Positions 4,995 to 47,089 of a stretch of DNA of 64,000 nucleotides are shown here, in pieces. The stretch comes from an uncultured Gammaproteobacteria bacterium (GTDB lineage Bacteria > Pseudomonadota > Gammaproteobacteria > CAVZZX01), in assembly GCA_963779865.1 (NCBI GenBank), contig CAVZZX010000003.1, forward strand, positions 1,924,429 through 1,988,428. Reading direction: 5' to 3'. A program made the position numbers and the translations under genes. The notes below the pieces were generated by a model that saw only the letters and a list, made by a program, of their open reading frames with translations, did no database searches and was not told the DNA's origin. The number at the start of each line of letters is the position of its first letter. The first letter of the stretch is position 1.

Positions 4995-6566
4995 ATGCAC
5001 AAGATCAAGCGCGCGCTCATCAGCGTCTCGGACAAGAGCGGCATCGCCGAGTTTGCCGCCCGCCTGCACCGCGAGTTCGGCGTGGAGATCCTCTCCACCG
5101 GCGGCACGGCCCGCCTGCTCGCCGAACAGGGGGTCCCGGTGGTGGAGGTCTCCGACTACACCGGCTTTCCCGAGATGATGGACGGGCGGGTGAAGACCCT
5201 GCACCCCAAAGTCCATGGCGGGCTGCTCGGCCGCCGCGGCATCGACGACGCGGTGATGGCGGAGCATGGCATCCCGCCCATCGACATGGTGGTGGTCAAC
5301 CTCTATCCCTTCGAGCAGACCGTGTCCAAGCCCGACTGCACCCTGGCGCAGGCGATCGAGAACATCGACATCGGCGGCCCGACCATGCTGCGCGCCGCGG
5401 CCAAGAACCACGCGGCGGTCGCGGTGGTGGTGGACGCCGCCGACTACGCGCCGGTGCTGGGCGAGATGGCCGAGCGCGGCGGTGCGTTGAGCGACGCACG
5501 CCGCTACGACCTCGCGGTGAAGACCTTCGAGCACACGGCGCGCTATGACGGGGCCATCGCCAACTACCTCGGCGCGGTCTCCGCGAGCGGGGAGCGCAGC
5601 GCCTTCGCGCGCACCTTCAACCTGCAGCTGCGCAAGGCGCAGGAGATGCGCTACGGGGAGAACCCGCACCAGGCGGCGGCCTTCTACGTGGAGGACGCGC
5701 CCGAGCCCGGCAGCGTCGCCACCGCCCAGCAGTCACAGGGCAAGGCGCTGTCCTACAACAACATCGCCGATACCGACGCGGCGCTGGAGTGCGTGAAGCA
5801 GTTCGCCGAGAGCCCCGCCTGTGTCATCGTCAAACACGCCAATCCCTGCGGCGTAGCGCTCGGGCACAGCCTGCTGGAGGCCTACGAACGCGCCTTTCGC
5901 ACCGACCCGACCTCCGCCTTCGGCGGCATCATCGCCTTCAACCAGCCGCTGGATGCGCAGACCGCGCGCACCATCGTCGAGCGCCAGTTCGTCGAGGTCA
6001 TCATCGCCCCCGCCGTCGAGCCGGAGGCCGCCGACGCCGTCGCGGCCAAGAAGAACGTGCGCCTGCTGGCCTGCGGCGACTGGCCTGCGCAGCCGTTGCC
6101 GGTGCTGGATTTCAAGCGCGTCTCCGGCGGCCTCCTGGTGCAGGAGCGCGACAGCGCCATGGTGGCGGAGGACGCACTGAAGGTGGTCACCCGTCGCGCC
6201 CCGGAGCGGCGCGAGCTCGAGGACCTGCTGTTCGCCTGGCGGGTGGCGAAATTCGTCAAGTCCAATGCCATCGTCTATGCCCGCGAGGGCACCACCATCG
6301 GCGTCGGCGCGGGGCAGATGAGCCGCGTCTACAGCGCGCGCATCGCCGGCATCAAGGCCGCCGACGAGGGTCTCACCGTGGCCGGCTCGGTGATGGCCTC
6401 CGATGCCTTCTTCCCGTTCCGCGACGGCATCGACGCCGCGGCGCAGGCCGGGATCACCGCCGTTATCCAGCCGGGCGGCTCGATGCGCGACGAGGAGGTC
6501 ATCGCCGCCGCCGACGAGCACGGCATGGCCATGGTGTTCACCGGCATGCGCCACTTCCGGCATTGA
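4995..6566 (+). CDS. purH: Bifunctional AICAR formyltransferase / IMP cyclohydrolase
   Basis: N-term [16 protein letters not shown]-like and AICARFT domains, 523 aa. Confidence 0.9.
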
Positions 6567-6602
6567 CTTCGCGCCGCGCGCGGCGATTACGGGGACGCGG
6601 AT

Positions 6603-7895
6603 ATGAAGGTACTGATCATCGGCGGCGGCGGACGCGAGCACGCCCTCGCCTGGAAGGCAGCGCAGTCCCCCGGCATTGAAACGGTCTACGTCGCCCCCGG
6701 CAACGCCGGTACCGCACGCGAGCCGAAGCTCGAGAATGTGGCGATCGCCGCGGAGGACATCGACGCCCTGCTCGCCTTCGCCCGCGGGGCGCAGGTCGGG
6801 CTCACCATCGTCGGGCCCGAGGCCCCGCTGGTGGCCGGCGTGGTCGACCGCTTCACCGCGGCCGGGCTGCGCTGCTTCGGCCCGAGCGCCGCGGCCGCAC
6901 GGCTGGAGGGCTCCAAGGCCTTCAGCAAGGACTTCCTCGCCAGGCATGGCATTCCGACGGCCGGCTACCGGGTGTTCACGGAAATCGAGCCCGCGGCCGC
7001 CTACGTGCGCGAGCGCGGCGCGCCGCTGGTGGTCAAGGCCGACGGCCTGGCCGCCGGCAAGGGCGTGGTGGTCGCGCCAAGCGTCGACGAGGCGCTGGCC
7101 GCGGTGCAGGAGATGCTGGCGGGCAACCGCTTCGGCGAGGCCGGCCACCGGGTGGTGGTCGAGGACTTTCTCAGCGGCGAGGAGGCCAGCTTCATCGTCA
7201 TGGTCGACGGCGAGCACGTCCTGCCGATGGCCAGCTCACAGGACCACAAGGCGCGCGACGACGGCGATCGCGGGCCCAACACCGGCGGCATGGGCGCCTA
7301 TTCCCCCGCGCCGGTGGTCACCCCCGATGTGGAGCGCCGCATCCTCGAGGAGGTGATCCTGCCGACCGTGCGCGGCATGGCCGCCGAAGGCCACCCCTAC
7401 ACCGGCTTTCTGTATGCCGGGGTGATGGTCGACGCGGACGGCCGTCCGCGCGTACTCGAATACAACTGCCGCTTCGGCGACCCCGAAACCCAGCCCATCA
7501 TGATGCGCCTGCGCTCGGACCTGGTCGCCCTGTGCGAGGCGGCGCTGGACGGCCGGCTCGATACCGTGCGCGCCGAGTGGGACCCGCGCGCCGCGCTCGG
7601 CGTGGTGCTGGCCGCCGGCGGCTACCCGGACACCTACCGCAAGGGCGAGCGCATCCAGGGCCTTCCCGAGAAGGATGCCCCCGACGCCAAGGTCTTCCAC
7701 GCCGGCACGGCCGCGGCGGACGGCGGCGTAGTCACCAGCGGCGGCCGCGTCCTGTGCGCCGTGGGGCTGGGGGAAAGCGTCGGCACCGCGCAGCGCCGCG
7801 CCTACGCCCTGGCCGATGCCATCCATTGGGACGGCGTCTACTACCGCCGCGACATCGGCCACCGCGCCATCGCCCGCGAGGCAGGCGCCGGCTGA
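6603..7895 (+). CDS. purD: Phosphoribosylamine--glycine ligase
   Basis: MKVLIIGGGGREHALAWK, ATP-grasp; 430 aa; directly after purH. Confidence 0.9.
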   Translation: MKVLIIGGGGREHALAWKAAQSPGIETVYVAPGNAGTAREPKLENVAIAAEDIDALLAFARGAQVGLTIVGPEAPLVAGVVDRFTAAGLRCFGPSAAAARLEGSKAFSKDFLARHGIPTAGYRVFTEIEPAAAYVRERGAPLVVKADGLAAGKGVVVAPSVDEALAAVQEMLAGNRFGEAGHRVVVEDFLSGEEASFIVMVDGEHVLPMASSQDHKARDDGDRGPNTGGMGAYSPAPVVTPDVERRILEEVILPTVRGMAAEGHPYTGFLYAGVMVDADGRPRVLEYNCRFGDPETQPIMMRLRSDLVALCEAALDGRLDTVRAEWDPRAALGVVLAAGGYPDTYRKGERIQGLPEKDAPDAKVFHAGTAAADGGVVTSGGRVLCAVGLGESVGTAQRRAYALADAIHWDGVYYRRDIGHRAIAREAGAG

Positions 7896-8011
7896 CCCGC
7901 CACTCGCCCGATTGACCGCCCCCCGGGCCGGTGCAATGATGCCCACGGGGGGGAAAACACATGCCGGCGATCCCGGGGGAGAAGCGCGGCATGGGCTCCC
8001 CTGCCTGAACC

Positions 8012-8035
8012 CATAACGACAACACATAACGACAA
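8012..8035. repeat. Tandem direct repeat cataacgacaa (2 copies, 13-bp period) in AT-rich leader
   Basis: cataacgacaaca cataacgacaata seen directly; AT-rich island in a GC-rich genome, about 15 nt upstream of the DUF898 gene start. Confidence 0.5.
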
Positions 8036-8049
8036 TAAAGGGGGGCGCC

Positions 8050-9117
8050 ATGAACGCGCAGAGCACCCACCGCTTCGCCCATCTCGGCACGGGCGGCGAG
8101 CTGTTCCTCATCTTCATCGTCAACCTGCTGCTCACCATCCTCACCCTGGGCGTCTACAGCTTCTGGGCCAAGAGCCGGGTACGCCGCTATCTGTGGAGTC
8201 AGAGCCGCTTCGACGACGAGCCGCTGGAATACACCGGCACCGGCCGTGAGTTGTTCGTCGGCTATCTGCTCGCCATGGGCCTGCTGCTGCTCGGCGTCCT
8301 CGCTCTGGTGCTGGTCGGCGCGCTGCTGGCGCAGGTGAACCCGTCCCTGGTGTTCGTGCCGATGCTGCTCGGCTATGCGGCGTTTTTCGTGCTGATCGGC
8401 GTCGCCATCCATCGCGCGGTGCGCTACCGGCTCAGCCGCACCCGCTGGCGCGGGATCCGCCTGGGGCTGGAGGGCTCCTCACTGAGGTACGCCGGGCTGA
8501 TGATCGGCTACGGGCTGCTCAGTGCCCTCACCCTGGGCCTGGCAATGCCCTGGATGCGCAGCCGCCTGTACGGCCAGATCGCCGGCCATGCCAGCTTCGG
8601 TTCGGCCGCGCTGCACTACGACGGGCGCGGCGGCCGGTTGCTGCGCCCGTTCATGCTGGTGTGGGTGCTCGGACTGGCCGGCTTCGCCGGCTACGCCGCG
8701 GTGGCGTTCTCGGTGGCGCTGCAGGCCCAACAGGCCGGCGCCCCGGCCGAGCCCGGCGCCATGGCGGCCCTGCCGCTGCTGTTGCTGCTCTTCTGGCTCC
8801 CGGCCGGCCTCGCCTGGCTTTGGTATCGCGCCCGCGAGCTGCGTTACTTTGCGGCGCACACCCACCTGCAGCAGGCCCGCTTCGCCAGCGACATCCAGGC
8901 ACGGGGCTTTCTGCGGCTGATGCTCGGCAACCTGGCGCTGCTGATCCTCACCGTGGGGCTCGCCTTCCCCTGGGTGCTCACGCGCTCCATGCGCTTCTTC
9001 GCCGCGCATCTGACGCTCGAGGGGCCGCTGGACTTCGCCGCCATCGCACAGAACACGCAGCAGGTGCCGCACACCGGCGAGGGGCTGTTCGAGGCCTTTG
9101 ACCTCGGTGCGCTCTGA
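8050..9117 (+). CDS. DUF898 (YjgN-like) family inner-membrane protein
   Basis: Multiple hydrophobic helices, repeated architecture; N-term pattern resembling YjgN family. Confidence 0.55.
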   Translation: MNAQSTHRFAHLGTGGELFLIFIVNLLLTILTLGVYSFWAKSRVRRYLWSQSRFDDEPLEYTGTGRELFVGYLLAMGLLLLGVLALVLVGALLAQVNPSLVFVPMLLGYAAFFVLIGVAIHRAVRYRLSRTRWRGIRLGLEGSSLRYAGLMIGYGLLSALTLGLAMPWMRSRLYGQIAGHASFGSAALHYDGRGGRLLRPFMLVWVLGLAGFAGYAAVAFSVALQAQQAGAPAEPGAMAALPLLLLLFWLPAGLAWLWYRARELRYFAAHTHLQQARFASDIQARGFLRLMLGNLALLILTVGLAFPWVLTRSMRFFAAHLTLEGPLDFAAIAQNTQQVPHTGEGLFEAFDLGAL

Positions 9118-36835: not shown

Positions 36836-37318
36836 CTACGCCGCCTTTTGCTTGGTCTTGGTCCGACGCCGCTTCGCCTTGGGTCGATTGAGCGCGGATT
36901 CGGCCTTCGCTGCCGCCTTCTCCAGCGTGGTGAAGCGCTTGGCGCCGTCGCGCAGGGCACGCTCGTTTTCACGCACCTCGGCGAGCTTGGGGCGCTCCTG
37001 CTTCAACTGCTCGGCAATCTTCTTGTAGTCGCGCTCGATGCTGCGCAGCGCCTTGGTGGCTGCGGCCGTCGCCTTGTTCTCCACCCGGGCCTTGGCCTTC
37101 TTGAAACGCTCGGCAAGCTGCTGTCGCTTCTTATTGAGCGCATCGACGTTGCGCTTCTGCACGTTGAGCTCACGCTTCGCCGTGGTGGTCGCCCGCTTGT
37201 AGGCGCGCTCCACGTCCTGGCGCAGACGGGCCAGGTCTTTTTCCATCGCGTCGATGTCGGTGCGGGTCGGTGCGGGTTTGGCCTTTCGCGCTGCGGTCTT
37301 TTTCTTTCGCACTGCCAT
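36836..37318 (-). CDS. Basic Lys/Ala-rich coiled-coil protein (histone H1-like)
   Basis: Highly basic, K/R/A-rich, predicted coiled coil; start at MAVRKKK. Confidence 0.45.
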   Translation of the reverse strand: MAVRKKKTAARKAKPAPTRTDIDAMEKDLARLRQDVERAYKRATTTAKRELNVQKRNVDALNKKRQQLAERFKKAKARVENKATAAATKALRSIERDYKKIAEQLKQERPKLAEVRENERALRDGAKRFTTLEKAAAKAESALNRPKAKRRRTKTKQKAA

Positions 37319-37472
37319 GCGGTGTTCCCCGTCGTTGTGTTTTCTCAATGAGTGCGTGTTCCCTCTCCCGAGCTGCCGTCCCTTGCCGCCGCAGCACTGC
37401 TGCGCCGCAACGTTGCAGCGCCTACTTTAATACATCGAGCCCGATATTCCACCCTCGCTGCGCGACACGCGA

Positions 37473-38462
37473 TCACGGGTCGCCGTCGTCGTCAGCCCAA
37501 CGCACCACGCGCAGAGGGATCTCGCGCGGGTGAATGTGTTCCTCGGAGAACACGCGCCCGCGCACCGAGATGCCCGCTTCGTGGACGCTGTTCGGGTCGC
37601 GCGTGAGCAGTGGGTGCCAACCGCTGAGGTCGCGCCCTTCGCTGATCCGCCGATAGGCGCACGAGGGCGGCAGACGCGCCAGCAGATCCGTGCGCTGCGG
37701 CTTCAACACCATGCAATCGGAAACCCTGCGGGTGCGCGCCACGTAATCGCCGCAGCGAGCGCTGTCGCCATCGAGCAGACGGCAGGCGACATCGGTGCGC
37801 AGGATGCGGCCGTCGCTCTCGTCTTCGAAGGTATGCACGCAGCAGCGGCCGCAGCCGTCACAAAGCGACTCCCACTCCGTGGGGCTCATCTCCTCGAGCG
37901 ATTTGTGCCGCCAGAAGGTTTCCGATTCCCCCATCGCCGGTTCGCTCACGCCCGGCTCGTGCTCGAGCAGCGCGAATGCGCGCCGCGCGCGGCGCACGTC
38001 GGGGTCCACCCGTGTCGTGACCGCCTCGATCGCCGCCAGATAGTCGGCCGGAAAGCCATGCACCCGCGCGCCGTGCAGCACCAGTGCCCGGTACCATGAG
38101 AAGGGCTGCAAGTGCGGCTCGATATGGCTGGGCTCGGCGATGTAGGCGAAGGCCTGCAACGATCGGCCTTGCGCGTCCGCCACGGTCAACTCGCGAACGG
38201 CATAGCCCGCCCCTTCCGCGCGGTCCAGGGCGGCCTTCTCCTCAAGGGCGATCTCGTACACCACGCCATGCACGCGGTGCTGCGCAGCGCCGGTAAAGCA
38301 GGCGTCGCCCTTGCCCGAGCCGTCCGCCCCGCGCTTGTGGAAGGCCAGACGATAGCCGGGCAGGGTGGCGCGCACCGCCACGCGGCACGAGGGGGTGCGC
38401 GCGCGCAGTCGCGGGGGCAGCAGGTTCGAGCCATAGGCGAAGTAGTTCAACGTGCGACCCAT
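37473..38462 (-). CDS. Fusion protein: gamma-glutamyl cyclotransferase-like (AIG2/GGCT) domain + YcgN (UPF0260) Cys-rich domain
   Basis: N-term YFAYGSNL (GGCT fold); C-term LCDGCGRCC...VACRLLD...CGDY resembling E. coli YcgN. Confidence 0.6.
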   Translation of the reverse strand: MGRTLNYFAYGSNLLPPRLRARTPSCRVAVRATLPGYRLAFHKRGADGSGKGDACFTGAAQHRVHGVVYEIALEEKAALDRAEGAGYAVRELTVADAQGRSLQAFAYIAEPSHIEPHLQPFSWYRALVLHGARVHGFPADYLAAIEAVTTRVDPDVRRARRAFALLEHEPGVSEPAMGESETFWRHKSLEEMSPTEWESLCDGCGRCCVHTFEDESDGRILRTDVACRLLDGDSARCGDYVARTRRVSDCMVLKPQRTDLLARLPPSCAYRRISEGRDLSGWHPLLTRDPNSVHEAGISVRGRVFSEEHIHPREIPLRVVRWADDDGDP

Positions 38463-39487
38463 TCGTCCTCCTCCAGAACACGTGTCTCGCCGTGCCGCAA
38501 AACCTGAAACTCCTCGGGCGCGAGACCGGCGGCTTGCGCCGCGGCGCGCAGCCGCTTCGGAGGTTCATCCAGCGGCTCGTCGGTCAGGGGAAAGGTCCCC
38601 CAGTGAATGCCGACCGAGCGACGGCTGCGCAGATCACAATGCACCTGAACCGCCTCCTCGGGGTCCATGTGATGGGCACGCATGAACCAACGCGGTGCAT
38701 AGGCGCCGATGGGAATGGCGGCCAGGTCGAAGGGCCCCAGGCGGCGTCCGATATCGGCAAAATCCGGAGAATACCCCGAGTCGCCCGCGAACAGGAAACG
38801 CAAGCCATCGACGCTGGCCGCCCAGCCACTCCACAGGCTGCCGTTGCTCGAAAAAGGTGTCCGCTTGCTCCAATGCTGCACCGGCACCGGCATGATGCGC
38901 AGGCCGCGATGAGTCGTGCCCTGCCACCAGTCGAGCTCGATCACTTCATCGATGCCGCGCCGCGCAAACCAGCGCTTGAGCCCGAGGGGCACGAAGAACA
39001 CCGTGCGGCCGCCGCCGCGACGATGCAGCTTGCGGATCGTCGCCGCATCGAGCGAGTCGTAGTGGTCATGGGAGATGAGCACCGCGTCAATGGCGGGCAG
39101 GTCCTCCAGGGCGATCCCCGGGGGCACCACGCGCCGGGGTCCGGCCCACTGCACGGGCGAGGCGCGGCGCGAGAACTGCGGGTCGGTGAGCACGTTGCGC
39201 CCTGCCATCTGCAGCAGCAGGGTGGCATGGCCTATCCAGGTCAGCGTGGTACGTGCCGTGTTTGCCCGCAGCGCCGCAGGATCATTGGCGGCGAGTTCAA
39301 ACCGCGGGGTGGGCGGCGCACCGCGGCCCCGCTGCTCGAGCTTCCAGCGCAGAAAGTCGGCGAAGCCCGGTGGCCGATAGCCGGGGTGCACGTTGCGAAA
39401 GCCGTGCGCGGCGTGATGCGGCAGCGCCGCATCCGGCGAGGGCACGCGGGTGAACAGCTGGCTCACGGAGCCGAACAGATGGCGCAC
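38447..39487 (-). CDS. MBL-fold metallo-hydrolase (NAPE-PLD-like)
   Basis: HxHxDH-type motif ISHDHYDS, FRNVHP N-terminal pattern; GTG start with aagggagg RBS; 16-nt overlap with downstream gene. Confidence 0.7.
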   Translation of the reverse strand: MRHLFGSVSQLFTRVPSPDAALPHHAAHGFRNVHPGYRPPGFADFLRWKLEQRGRGAPPTPRFELAANDPAALRANTARTTLTWIGHATLLLQMAGRNVLTDPQFSRRASPVQWAGPRRVVPPGIALEDLPAIDAVLISHDHYDSLDAATIRKLHRRGGGRTVFFVPLGLKRWFARRGIDEVIELDWWQGTTHRGLRIMPVPVQHWSKRTPFSSNGSLWSGWAASVDGLRFLFAGDSGYSPDFADIGRRLGPFDLAAIPIGAYAPRWFMRAHHMDPEEAVQVHCDLRSRRSVGIHWGTFPLTDEPLDEPPKRLRAAAQAAGLAPEEFQVLRHGETRVLEEDEWVAR

Positions 39488-39597
39488 ACCGAGACCTCCC
39501 TTGGGTGTGAACGGGCCGAAACCTACTGGGTTCGACGGGTTCGGGGGGGCGGGGGTTCCCTCGGCGCGCCTTGGCGGCGGGCACGGCGCGGTCCCGG

Positions 39598-40062
39598 TCA
39601 GACGAGACCGGCCTTGTGCATGGCGCGGTGCTTGGCGGCGATGAAATCGCGATGCGGGACGTACAGCAGATCGGCGATCTTGCGCACCAGATGCTCCTCG
39701 TACTTGTCCAGCTCGCGGTCGGCAAAGGCGACCTGCCACATCAGCTCGATGAGGTGTGTCTTCTGCTCGGGGGAGAAGTGATCCTTGATGAGCGAGGTGA
39801 ACTGGTAGTGCGAGGTCGAATTGTTCGCCCGCCGCCCCGCCACGTCGATGAGCTCACTGGTGGCCTCCTCATCCAGGTCGAAGGTGCGCTGCACCGCACG
39901 GCGTAGCGCCTCCACCTCCGCGGCCTCCTCGCTGTGGTCGGCCCGTGCGGTTTCGATCAGCAGCGCGGCCGCCGCCAGCCGCACGCGCCGCTCCAGATCG
40001 GCCTCGGCCGCACCGTCCGTCTCGAGGTGCTGCGCAAAGAAGCGTTTTATGGCGTCTATCAT
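39598..40062 (-). CDS. TerB-family (tellurite resistance TerB-like) protein
   Basis: All-helical about 150 aa with TerB-like acidic pattern. Confidence 0.6.
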   Translation of the reverse strand: MIDAIKRFFAQHLETDGAAEADLERRVRLAAAALLIETARADHSEEAAEVEALRRAVQRTFDLDEEATSELIDVAGRRANNSTSHYQFTSLIKDHFSPEQKTHLIELMWQVAFADRELDKYEEHLVRKIADLLYVPHRDFIAAKHRAMHKAGLV

Positions 40063-40110
40063 GGGGATTCCTCCACTGCGTTCAGAATAGCAGGAGGGCG
40101 GCCGTCGTTC

Positions 40111-40992
40111 TCAGCCGCGCACCGCCTCCTCGGCCTCCGCCGCGGGCGGGGGCGGCAGTGCGGCGGCGGGGCTCACGGCCTGAATGTTGTAGGCCTGCAG
40201 CGCGCCCTCCTTCACGGCCGAGCGCCCGATGTCGAACTCGAAGATCACGTCATGGCTGGGCAGGGACGCCGCGCGCACGTGTTCGGGGAGGTCCGAATCG
40301 CTGAAGAAGATGGACCCGTAGGGCGAGTCCTCGCGGCGGCTGTCGGTGATCCACAGATTGCCACCCACGTGCTTGAGATAACGCAGGAAGCCGTAGCCCT
40401 CGCGGCTGTGAAAATAACAGGTGCCGCGCACGCGCGAATCGAGCTCGCCCCAGGCCGTGCGCTCCTGCCCCTTGGGCGCGACCAGGTTGGGAATCAGATA
40501 GCCGGAGACGAAAACGTCCGCCTCCCGGCGCAATTCGGCAGACACGTTGTCGAAGGCGACCACCTCGACGCGGCAGCCCTTGTTCTGCAACGCGCGCACC
40601 ACCTGCACGAAGTCGCCGTCGCCGGTCCCCAGCAGCACGCGCCCAAGGTTCTCCGACTGCAACAGCGCGTCGACGGCCATGTCGAGGTCGGCATTCGCCT
40701 TGGCATAGGCGTTGCCTTCGTCGTCGCGGTACCACTTGTAGTTCTTGACGATGACCTTGTAGCCGACGTCGCGCAGGGCGGAGAAGTAGCGGTGCGTCCG
40801 GGTCTTGTACGGGCGGTCGCGGCGGCCGCGCTCCTCGTCATAGGTGACGTAGGCGTTGAGCCGCACCGGCTCGCCGCCGTCGTGACAGGCGTACTCGCGC
40901 AGCACGTCGTACTGCATCCCGTAGCCGCCGTTGCTCTGCAGGTTGGCCGAGTCGACGTAGACGCCGACGCCGCTGCGGTTGAATGCCGCCAT
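40111..40992 (-). CDS. NYN (PIN-like) domain protein with C-terminal cold-shock domain
   Basis: NYN/LabA-like N-domain (VYVDSANL...LLGTGDGDF), C-terminal CSD (GTCYFHSREGYGFLRY...SIFFSDSDL). Confidence 0.7.
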   Translation of the reverse strand: MAAFNRSGVGVYVDSANLQSNGGYGMQYDVLREYACHDGGEPVRLNAYVTYDEERGRRDRPYKTRTHRYFSALRDVGYKVIVKNYKWYRDDEGNAYAKANADLDMAVDALLQSENLGRVLLGTGDGDFVQVVRALQNKGCRVEVVAFDNVSAELRREADVFVSGYLIPNLVAPKGQERTAWGELDSRVRGTCYFHSREGYGFLRYLKHVGGNLWITDSRREDSPYGSIFFSDSDLPEHVRAASLPSHDVIFEFDIGRSAVKEGALQAYNIQAVSPAAALPPPPAAEAEEAVRG

Positions 40993-41291
40993 CAGGCCTC
41001 GTTCTCGGCCGCCCCTACCCAGCCCTGCAGCGCGTCGATGATCTTCTGGGCCTGCTCGCGGCTGGAAATGTTGAATTTCGACTTCTGCCGAAATTCACCG
41101 TAGCGCTTCTGATAGCGCCGGATGGAATACTTCTCGGACCCGTAGTCGTTCGCCTTCGCGTCCCATTCCTGATAGCGGAACAGGATGGTCGTCCAGGCGC
41201 CGCGGGTGAGAACGACCTTGTCCAGCTCCTTGACCAGCTGGATGCCGCCCTCTTCGTAGTCGATGGTGATGTCCTCGATGTTCTCTGCCAT
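40992..41291 (-). CDS. Hypothetical small protein, translationally coupled to NYN-CSD gene
   Basis: 99-aa ORF; stop overlaps downstream start; no motif recognised. Confidence 0.45.
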   Translation of the reverse strand: MAENIEDITIDYEEGGIQLVKELDKVVLTRGAWTTILFRYQEWDAKANDYGSEKYSIRRYQKRYGEFRQKSKFNISSREQAQKIIDALQGWVGAAENEA

Positions 41292-42174: not shown

Positions 42175-42465
42175 TCAGGGCGCGCGCGAGGAGAGGTGCT
42201 CGATGCGGGCACCGATGTCGTCGAAGATCTTCAGCAGGCCCTCGCCCGCGTCGTCCTGCACCCAGGCCTCGGCGTCGCGCGTGCGCAGCTCGACGAGGCG
42301 GTCCTCCGCCTGCAGACGCTCCTTGCGCAAGGTGTGGATCTCCTGGCGGTAGGCCTCGCGCTGCGCGGGCTCGGCCTGGGCCAGGCGCCGCTCCAGGCTG
42401 ACCAGCTCGCGGTCCCAGCGCGCCAGCCGCTGCTCCAGGTCCTCGATCAGCTCGTTGCGTTCCAT
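42175..42465 (-). CDS. Hypothetical coiled-coil protein
   Basis: 96-aa ORF, charged heptad-like sequence. Confidence 0.4.
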   Translation of the reverse strand: MERNELIEDLEQRLARWDRELVSLERRLAQAEPAQREAYRQEIHTLRKERLQAEDRLVELRTRDAEAWVQDDAGEGLLKIFDDIGARIEHLSSRAP

Positions 42466-46018: not shown

Positions 46019-47089
46019 TCATGAGGAGGGCGCGCTGAGCAGTCGCCGCACCAGCGCCGTGCCCCTGGCGAGCACCCCCTCGCGCCAACGGCGCGAGGAC
46101 GGACAGAACGCCGTGCGCAGCCGCCGCTTGCTCGGATGGTCCAGGGTGCCGGCGCCGTAGTGATGCCAGCGGTTCTCCTCGCGCATCGCGTGCAGCACGC
46201 GCAGTGCGCCGCGCGTGCCGAATTCCTGGGTGAGCGCGGTGACGCGCACCCCCGGCAGCCAGTGCACGAGGGCCGGCGCCAGGCCGCCGCGGTTGAGGTA
46301 GCCGCTGCGCATCCCCGGCTCGACCCACTGCACCCACCGTACATCGGGCCCGAGCCGCGCCTGCAGTGCGGCCCGCTCGCCGCCGGCGGCCTCGACGAAC
46401 AGGGTCTGCCGGCCACCTCGCCCCAGTCCGGTGTGCACGTCCACGGCCCACACCTGCTCCACGCCGCGCAGGCGCCGCTGCAACCACTGGCGATAGCGGC
46501 GCGGTCCCTCCTCCAGCTCGCGGCCGCCGTAGAACAGGCCCTTCGGGTACTCGTACTGGCCGCCCGCCACCGCCGCCTGCAGCGCGCGGAAGCCGTGGCG
46601 CAGCACGGCCCCCACGGCCTGGCGATAAAAACCGTCGGACGCCGGCGGCGAGGCGGGGTTGAGCAGCGGGTCCAGCGCCCGATAGAACGGGGGGGCGCCG
46701 CACCAGGCCTCGCCCGGGCCGGGGCAGTTTCGGTTCAGGTCCACGTTGTGCTCGTTGACGCGCCGCAGCCAGGCCATGCCGAAGGGGTTGAGGGCGTGCA
46801 CCAGCACCAGTGCCTGGTCGGCGGCGAGCGGCGGCGGCTCGGCGAGCAGCGCCAGCTGCACCGCGGCGCCCGCGAAACCCTCGACGCCGTGCAGGCCGCA
46901 GGAGTGCAGCAACACGCGCCCCGCCCGCGCCGGCCCCAGCCAGGCGATGTCGATCCCCAACGCCTCGCCGCGGGGGCCGCGGCCGGAGAGCAGCAGGCTG
47001 TCGAAGCCGGCACCGGCGGCAGCCGCAGCGCGTCGGAAGCGCTCGCGGGCCAGCGCATAATCGGGCGAGAACCGTTCCGCGGCGGGCAT
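46019..47089 (-). CDS. DUF2817 / M14 carboxypeptidase-like protein
   Basis: Zn-binding-like HSCGLHGVEG, succinylglutamate desuccinylase/aspartoacylase-like fold pattern. Confidence 0.55.
   Translation of the reverse strand: MPAAERFSPDYALARERFRRAAAAAGAGFDSLLLSGRGPRGEALGIDIAWLGPARAGRVLLHSCGLHGVEGFAGAAVQLALLAEPPPLAADQALVLVHALNPFGMAWLRRVNEHNVDLNRNCPGPGEAWCGAPPFYRALDPLLNPASPPASDGFYRQAVGAVLRHGFRALQAAVAGGQYEYPKGLFYGGRELEEGPRRYRQWLQRRLRGVEQVWAVDVHTGLGRGGRQTLFVEAAGGERAALQARLGPDVRWVQWVEPGMRSGYLNRGGLAPALVHWLPGVRVTALTQEFGTRGALRVLHAMREENRWHHYGAGTLDHPSKRRLRTAFCPSSRRWREGVLARGTALVRRLLSAPSS

Follow-up and report, generated by a model that had tools for sequence, protein, structure and literature searches.

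The five genes that lie close together on the minus strand at 37473–41291 of the 64,000-nt stretch of gammaproteobacterial DNA analyzed here (the window) raise the question of whether they constitute a functional system or are simply neighbors. The first-pass annotation had described five co-oriented genes with overlaps of 1 and 16 nt and had assigned to them NYN plus cold-shock, TerB, MBL-fold and GGCT–YcgN domains. All five open reading frames and both overlaps were confirmed at its coordinates, and profile and homology searches revealed that its domain calls were essentially correct. The cluster comprises the following features:

40992–41291, minus strand: small99, 99 aa, from a very conserved family that lacks annotation (open reading frame call)
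40111–40992, minus strand: NYN plus cold-shock-like protein, 293 aa, LabA-like (Pfam NYN match)
40504–40968, minus strand: NYN (PIN-like) nuclease domain of this protein, residues 9–163
40177–40437, minus strand: its putative cold-shock-like five-stranded barrel, residues ~186–272 (RNP1-like GYGFLR motif and VFFHD-like motif)
39598–40062, minus strand: stand-alone TerB-domain protein, 154 aa (full-length PF05099 profile match)
38447–39487, minus strand: NAPE-PLD-type MBL-fold hydrolase, ~346 aa (PF12706; start inferred from the Shine–Dalgarno sequence and the L163 ortholog)
37473–38462, minus strand: GGCT(AIG2-like)–YcgN fusion, 329 aa (Pfam GGACT/AIG2_2 and CxxCxxCC; NCBIfam YcgN)
~38013–38462, minus strand: GGCT part of the fusion
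~37494–37928, minus strand: YcgN part of the fusion

The small99 gene, which has a GGAG 10 nt 5′ of its ATG, ends in a TGA, the final A of which is also the first base of the NYN start codon (TGATG). A 48-nt gap separates the NYN gene from the TerB gene and one of about 110 nt separates the latter from the MBL gene, which in turn overlaps the GGCT–YcgN gene at 38447–38462. No terminator-like site was detected in any intergenic gap of the cluster, which, together with the tight spacing, indicates that the five genes may be co-transcribed here; an operon is plausible for these co-oriented genes. The promoter scan, uninformative at 69% GC, returned no sigma-70-like site, and no Rfam RNA element matched within the window. 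The GC content across the cluster (0.66–0.69) dips only slightly from ~0.70, and on both flanks (~34.1–44.3 kb) the genes examined belong to ordinary chromosomal classes and include neither an integrase nor a transposase. Stress-type genes, encoding an sll1863-family protein and a CPA2 antiporter, are found nearby. Further along, the single tRNA call in the window (46029–46127) is doubtful. The best database matches suggest an Ectothiorhodospiraceae-like gammaproteobacterium as the source of the DNA.

The NYN domain of the second protein was supported by a Pfam match (PF01936; E = 1.2e-23, 84.7 bits against a cut-off of 24.2) over residues 9–163, and its fold agrees with that of VPA0982 (2qip) and of the NYN domain of MARF1. 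Residues D14, D102, D108, D125 and D127 were invariant across 23 orthologs, and the GDGDF motif aligns with VPA0982. The acidic metal-binding residues of the LabA-like NYN family are present, and nuclease activity is predicted from the sequence. Residues 165–293 produced no Pfam match to the cold-shock domain (PF00313) at E ≤ 10, and an hhalign comparison of the C-terminal region with CspA aligned only 13 residues and was not significant (E = 0.02). The putative barrel differs from cold-shock domain proteins of the CspA/UNR type (PF00313) both in this respect and in the ~18 residues inserted between its RNP1-like and VFFHD-like motifs. A passage in PMC5499597, citing Anantharaman et al. 2010, presents the NYN plus OST-HTH/LOTUS architecture as a predicted stand-alone RNA-degradation system, and according to the same source no bacterial LabA-like NYN member had been functionally studied. 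The present protein resembles these LabA-like NYN (NYN.COG1432, PF01936) plus OST-HTH/LOTUS proteins in its LabA-type NYN domain, its acidic residues, its fused putative RNA-binding module and its occurrence as a solo gene, whereas the appended module is here a putative cold-shock-like β-barrel; its activity and substrates are predictions. By analogy with the predicted NYN plus OST-HTH RNases, it would act as a metal-dependent endoribonuclease in which the cold-shock-like barrel holds single-stranded RNA. At least 509 species representatives encode the solo NYN plus cold-shock-like architecture, and our literature searches returned no description of an NYN–TerB system or of an NYN–CSD family; this widespread putative nuclease possibly merits specialist attention. 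A copy with 47% identity was found on a plasmid of Burkholderia gladioli, where an integrase, a RES/Xre toxin–antitoxin pair and H-NS lie close by; the 100-aa open reading frame 5′ of this copy was considered and is not a small99 homolog.

The TerB protein matched PF05099 (E = 4.7e-35) with the profile covered over its full length. It has this full-length domain in common with the Ter (tellurite-resistance-type) stress clusters but is stand-alone here, as members of the TerC, TerD, TerZ, TerA and TerE families were absent from the ten proteins scanned at 34.1–42.5 kb. It is probably a small, helical protein linked to stress. The MBL protein matched Pfam Lactamase_B_2 (E = 1.2e-41) and resembles human NAPE-PLD (4qn9) over nearly its full length (phmmer, residues 30–342, E = 2e-88). 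Its 430-aa open reading frame, running up to 39739, is over-extended, and the likely start is the GTG at 39487 behind a GGGAGG, giving 346 aa; the ortholog in L163, a contig related at the same-genus level, was called at 352 aa. Unlike the human enzyme, the bacterial protein does not have an intact metal-binding motif: HxHxDH reads SHDHYDS, with Ser in place of the last His. The same position is Ser in L163 too and His in four other bacterial homologs as well as in human NAPE-PLD. The protein may be a phosphodiesterase of NAPE-PLD-like type whose metal binding is possibly altered.

The last gene combines two families in one product. Matches to the GGACT/AIG2 profiles (E ~ 4e-11) and to human GGCT (E = 1e-10) were accompanied by a match of residues 179–323 to the NCBIfam YcgN equivalog model NF003501 (E = 1.7e-58, 196.7 bits, cut-off 167). 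In comparison with stand-alone YcgN (UPF0260, NF003501) and GGCT/AIG2 proteins, both domains are significant here but occupy one open reading frame. Among the best 120 of 1104 matches, this architecture was observed only in the window genome and in L163, the remaining top YcgN matches being YcgN proteins of 180–230 aa. In the product, a Cys-cluster protein would be joined to a gamma-glutamyl-cyclotransferase-like domain. Searches of PHROGs yielded only GGCT, YcgN-like and one marginal match, the latter to the NYN protein (E = 0.007).

Whether these genes belong together was examined through the genomic neighborhoods of their homologs. Not one of the other four genes was found at any of the 83 loci harboring NYN orthologs (56–78% identity, at least ten phyla), in regions of up to 10 kb per side. 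The 80 genome loci of this set at 56–72% identity, which were searched by tblastn at E ≤ 10 and by profiles within 4 kb, are spread through Ectothiorhodospiraceae, Nitrospirae, Chloroflexota, Desulfobacterales, Acidobacteriota, Fibrobacterota, Hydrogenedentota and other lineages. The closest NYN relatives (78% and 74% identity) adjoin NnrS/MgtC or a UvrD-type helicase. The 150 immediate neighbors of the NYN genes match 119 Pfam families, none of which recurs in more than five neighbors, and are mostly of housekeeping type, such as RF-2, MtnA, guanylate kinase, Fur and two-component systems. Likewise, an NYN ortholog, TerB or MBL was present at none of the 82 small99-anchored loci. The neighbors of MBL homologs on four replicons from four genera, and of a TerB homolog on a 1.8-Mb Halomonas replicon whose record describes it as a plasmid, were all unrelated, in a small sample of five replicons that consists of plasmid or chromid records only. 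Co-location across diverse genomes was thus found at 0/83 NYN, 0/82 small99 and 0/5 MBL/TerB loci. The first-pass annotation had left the choice between a stress or defence module and unrelated neighbors, and had itself named a lack of co-conservation as grounds for giving up the module; this lack is what we observed, and it supports the second of these readings.

Two relatives of the window bear on how the cluster may have arisen. The five-gene order is repeated only in L163, with identities to the window from 96% (small99) down to 71% (MBL) and with the small99/NYN overlap retained. L087, which is more distant and colinear with the window over ~23 kb, harbors small99 followed, after a 12-nt gap, by a stand-alone 179-aa YcgN, and the NYN, TerB, MBL and GGCT sequences are all absent from it. 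Given this arrangement, insertion or accretion specific to this lineage appears to have brought in the NYN, TerB and MBL genes and the GGCT part. We consider it likely that the cluster consists of chromosomal genes with independent functions that lie side by side at the genus level, and that it does not form a conserved multi-gene system. The older arrangement was probably small99 directly followed by a stand-alone ycgN; in the window lineage, ~2.9 kb would have come to separate the two, comprising the NYN plus cold-shock-like RNase gene, terB, the MBL gene and the GGCT gene, the reading frame of which continues in frame into ycgN and would thereby have produced the fusion. The genes most likely act independently, each product on its own, though they may be co-transcribed here. 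Tight spacing and co-orientation in one genome are no evidence of a system, and the NYN/TerB defence or stress module, plausible at first sight, can be dropped as a candidate system.

Defence nevertheless deserves weighing, as NYN/PIN and TerB domains are found in some defence loci. An anti-phage or abortive-infection module, in which the NYN RNase would be the effector and TerB and MBL would have accessory roles, could draw on the match of the generic PADLOC NYN model PDLC01154 to 94 residues (6.4e-10) and on the surroundings of the B. gladioli copy. This generic match was, however, all that the defence-catalogue check proposed in the first-pass annotation produced: no system was matched, and the other four proteins had no PADLOC match at E ≤ 1 (PADLOC-DB v2). 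The ordinary flanks and the slight GC dip also speak against such a module, as do the varied, mostly housekeeping-type NYN neighborhoods, in which defence-model matches across 79 genomes were few and scattered, and the identity of ~60% maintained across phyla, which is atypical for fast-evolving defence genes. We regard this explanation as very improbable. The overlap of a small 5′ gene with a PIN-like nuclease gene is also the geometry expected if small99 were the antitoxin and the NYN–CSD RNase the toxin of a type II pair. Even so, apart from the window genome and L163 the two genes are never adjacent (0/80 and 0/82 loci), both families also occur as solo genes, small99 is conserved far above usual antitoxins, and no PADLOC toxin–antitoxin model matched either protein, which leaves a toxin–antitoxin pair extremely unlikely.

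The small99 protein itself had no family match and no annotation in any library searched. Its predicted structure is a long antiparallel β-sheet with a C-terminal helix, and its family (~95 aa) is very strongly conserved, with only 339 clusters at 50% identity. Evidence from domain fusions was rejected: the extra sequence in the few longer relatives comes from parts of DAGK or GDE and not from NYN, and these relatives may stem from incomplete or wrong gene calls. The protein is basic and possibly binds nucleic acids. Strongly conserved yet without annotation, this family is possibly worth specialist attention.

The same protein is central to the remaining alternative, a recently assembled, lineage-specific stress operon in which the co-transcribed genes would be functionally linked, for example with small99 modulating or targeting the NYN–CSD RNase and with TerB, MBL and GGCT–YcgN sharing a membrane, redox or metal stress. 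Such an operon would agree with the retention of the TGATG translational-coupling geometry in L163, with the terminator-free gaps and with the nearby sll1863-family and CPA2 genes. We nonetheless judge it unlikely, since none of the 165 other loci conserves the arrangement, which is shared with one genus-level relative only, and since L087 has small99 without the other genes, indicating that it works without these partners. A narrower proposal, that small99 is a nucleic-acid-binding partner or regulator of nucleases, newly coupled translationally, in the window lineage, to the NYN plus cold-shock-like RNase to form an RNA-processing or stress pair, appears distinctly improbable. The stress operon can also invoke one other lineage (L110/L111), in which small99 adjoins a second, unrelated stand-alone NYN gene in convergent orientation, and the nucleases that lie beside small99 elsewhere, namely ExoI in 4–5 and RNase D in 3 of 118 neighbors, although these few adjacencies may reflect synteny among related genomes.

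The five genes claimed in the first-pass annotation were all present as co-oriented open reading frames, and the overlaps at two of their junctions were confirmed:

40992-41291, minus strand: small99, a 99-aa protein whose ATG is preceded by GGAG at a distance of 10 nt
40111-40992, minus strand: NYN nuclease protein of 293 aa (Pfam NYN, E=1.2e-23)
39598-40062, minus strand: TerB (PF05099, E=4.7e-35)
38447-39487, minus strand, stop at 38447: NAPE-PLD-type MBL-fold hydrolase (Lactamase_B_2, E=1.2e-41)
37473-38462, minus strand: GGCT-YcgN fusion protein (GGACT/AIG2 domain; YcgN part above the NCBIfam cut-off)

At the small99/NYN junction, TGATG, the A of the small99 TGA is shared with the ATG of the NYN gene, and the MBL and GGCT-YcgN genes overlap by 16 nt. 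The longest MBL reading frame (430 aa) reaches into terB and is over-extended; a length of ~346 aa was adopted because a GTG at 39487 lies behind GGGAGG and the orthologous gene in L163, a Logan contig from a close relative, is called at 352 aa. No intrinsic-terminator-like site was detected in the intergenic gaps of the cluster, the sole minus-strand site of this kind lying within the NYN gene.

Co-location was examined from four anchors, namely the NYN protein (NYN-CSD, after its cold-shock-like barrel), small99, MBL and TerB, and the five-gene order was recovered outside the window only in L163. The RNA-targeting stress or defence module suggested at first is thus unsupported, and the fallback that the genes are simply unrelated neighbours proved correct. 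NYN-CSD has more than 2000 homologues at ~60% identity, and when each species was represented by a single genome, at least 509 species were confirmed to have a relative. Its best 80 loci spread through Ectothiorhodospiraceae, Nitrospirae, Calditrichia, Chloroflexota, Desulfobacterales, Syntrophobacteraceae, Fibrobacterota, Hydrogenedentota, Acidobacteriota, KSB3 and Cytophagia, and none of them harbored small99, TerB, MBL or GGCT-YcgN in tblastn searches with twelve window proteins, even at E<=10; a small99 profile likewise matched no ORF within 4 kb of NYN-CSD in these loci. The nearest relatives (78% and 74% identity) adjoin NnrS/MgtC or a UvrD-type helicase. When 150 immediate neighbors were pooled, 119 Pfam families were matched, each in at most five neighbors and chiefly of housekeeping type (RF-2, MtnA, guanylate kinase, Fur, P-type ATPases and two-component systems). 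MBL homologues on Ralstonia, Roseomonas, Aureimonas and Pseudomonas replicons had unrelated flanking genes, as did the one plasmid-collection match to TerB (Halomonas); the window TerB stands alone, no other Ter family having turned up among the scanned neighbors. Together, these observations indicate that the five genes most likely act independently, possibly being co-transcribed.

A role of the cluster in anti-phage defence is very unlikely. PADLOC gave a partial, generic match to the NYN protein and none to the other four, with only scattered matches among NYN-CSD neighbors elsewhere, and PHROGs matches were limited to GGCT, YcgN-like and a marginal one for the NYN protein. The GC profile dips only slightly across the cluster (window ~69%), and the flanking genes examined are of ordinary chromosomal types (ThuA, AI-2E transporter, sll1863-family protein, CPA2 antiporter and FNR-like reductase). 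Two genes close to the cluster are also kept in L163: one at 36836-37348, whose 170-aa coiled-coil product is rich in lysine and matched no family, and one at 42175-42465, whose 96-aa product is a stress-response protein of the sll1863 family (NCBIfam NF052504, E=7e-12).

The small99 family is large, unannotated and extremely constrained: 5702 homologues were recorded, the family makes up >5,700 clusters at 90% identity but only 339 at 50% identity, and identity is ~65% among members from Gammaproteobacteria, Deltaproteobacteria and gut-metagenome contigs. The core of small99 is basic (IRRYQKR...SKFNIS), and the protein had no match among the models of Pfam, NCBIfam, PHROG and PADLOC. In a sample of 80 metagenome loci and two others (L081-L162), an NYN-CSD orthologue, TerB or MBL occurred in 0/82, and YcgN adjoined small99 in four, on the same strand in L087 and convergently in L130, L139 and L157. 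It behaves as a solo gene with variable neighbors, such as an ankyrin-repeat protein (12/118), DUF446 (4/118), ExoI (4-5/118) and RNase D (3/118). The only other small99/NYN juxtaposition found was in a single low-GC metagenome lineage (L110, 2454-3357; L111, 10001-10904), where the small99 homologue and a different NYN gene, which encodes 169 aa and stands alone, converge. A toxin-antitoxin pair formed by small99 and the NYN protein was excluded in practice, since in the loci examined the two families adjoin only in the window and L163, and small99 shows unusual conservation. It is unlikely that small99 acts as a nuclease-associated factor that has recently become coupled to the NYN RNase, a reading drawn from the 1-nt overlap kept within one genus, the one other NYN adjacency and the few ExoI/RNase D adjacencies.

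Between L163 and the window, identities of 96% for small99 and 92% for NYN, with the lowest, 71%, for MBL, correspond to a same-genus-level divergence; a functional operon specific to this lineage is unlikely, if less so than the preceding readings. The more distant contig L087 keeps the gene order of the window between ~58 kb and 35.6 kb; in it, small99 is followed after a 12-nt gap by a stand-alone YcgN of 179 aa and, at a greater distance, by the CPA2 antiporter, whereas in the window lineage NYN-CSD, TerB, MBL and the GGCT reading frame lie between small99 and ycgN, GGCT being joined in frame to ycgN. The arrangement may have arisen through gain in the window lineage or loss in L087, either of which would fit. 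At 46029-46127, ARAGORN called a 99-nt tRNA-Asn (anticodon at position 39), its only tRNA call in the window; Rfam at gathering score detected no tRNA in the entire window, similarity to L087 at the protein level overlaps this stretch, and ARAGORN's call is probably spurious.

Regarding the individual proteins, the acidic residues of NYN are invariant in 23 orthologues, which makes an active nuclease plausible. The "cold-shock domain" label probably holds as a fold, while sequence searches did not bear out membership of the family: Pfam detected no CSD, and the hhalign alignment of the barrel to E. coli CspA was limited to the RNP1-like GYGF stretch (E=0.02). The nearest analogue is the LabA-like NYN group, which includes an architecture with OST-HTH in place of the barrel; this NYN + OST-HTH form has been predicted to work as a stand-alone system of RNA degradation, and bacterial members lack functional study (PMC5499597). 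A full-length NYN + cold-shock-like gene of 47% identity also occurs at 5992-6795 of NZ_CP031451.1, a Burkholderia gladioli plasmid. An integrase, an H-NS gene and a RES/Xre toxin-antitoxin pair lie close to it, a mobile-element-like setting in contrast to the housekeeping ones of most genomes.

MBL is a NAPE-PLD homologue (E=2e-88 to human 4qn9) with an altered metal motif, SHDHYDS near residues 139-145. The last His of the canonical HxHxDH, which binds zinc in MBL enzymes, is conserved in human NAPE-PLD and four other bacterial homologues, whereas it is Ser in the window and also in the L163 protein (7467-8525). The GGCT part of the fusion aligned with human GGCT (E=1e-10), and among the best 120 of 1104 matches the fusion was restricted to the window genome and L163. 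The start region of stand-alone YcgN proteins aligns with a Met inside the fusion, near residue 176, so the fusion gene might also give rise to YcgN as a protein of its own.
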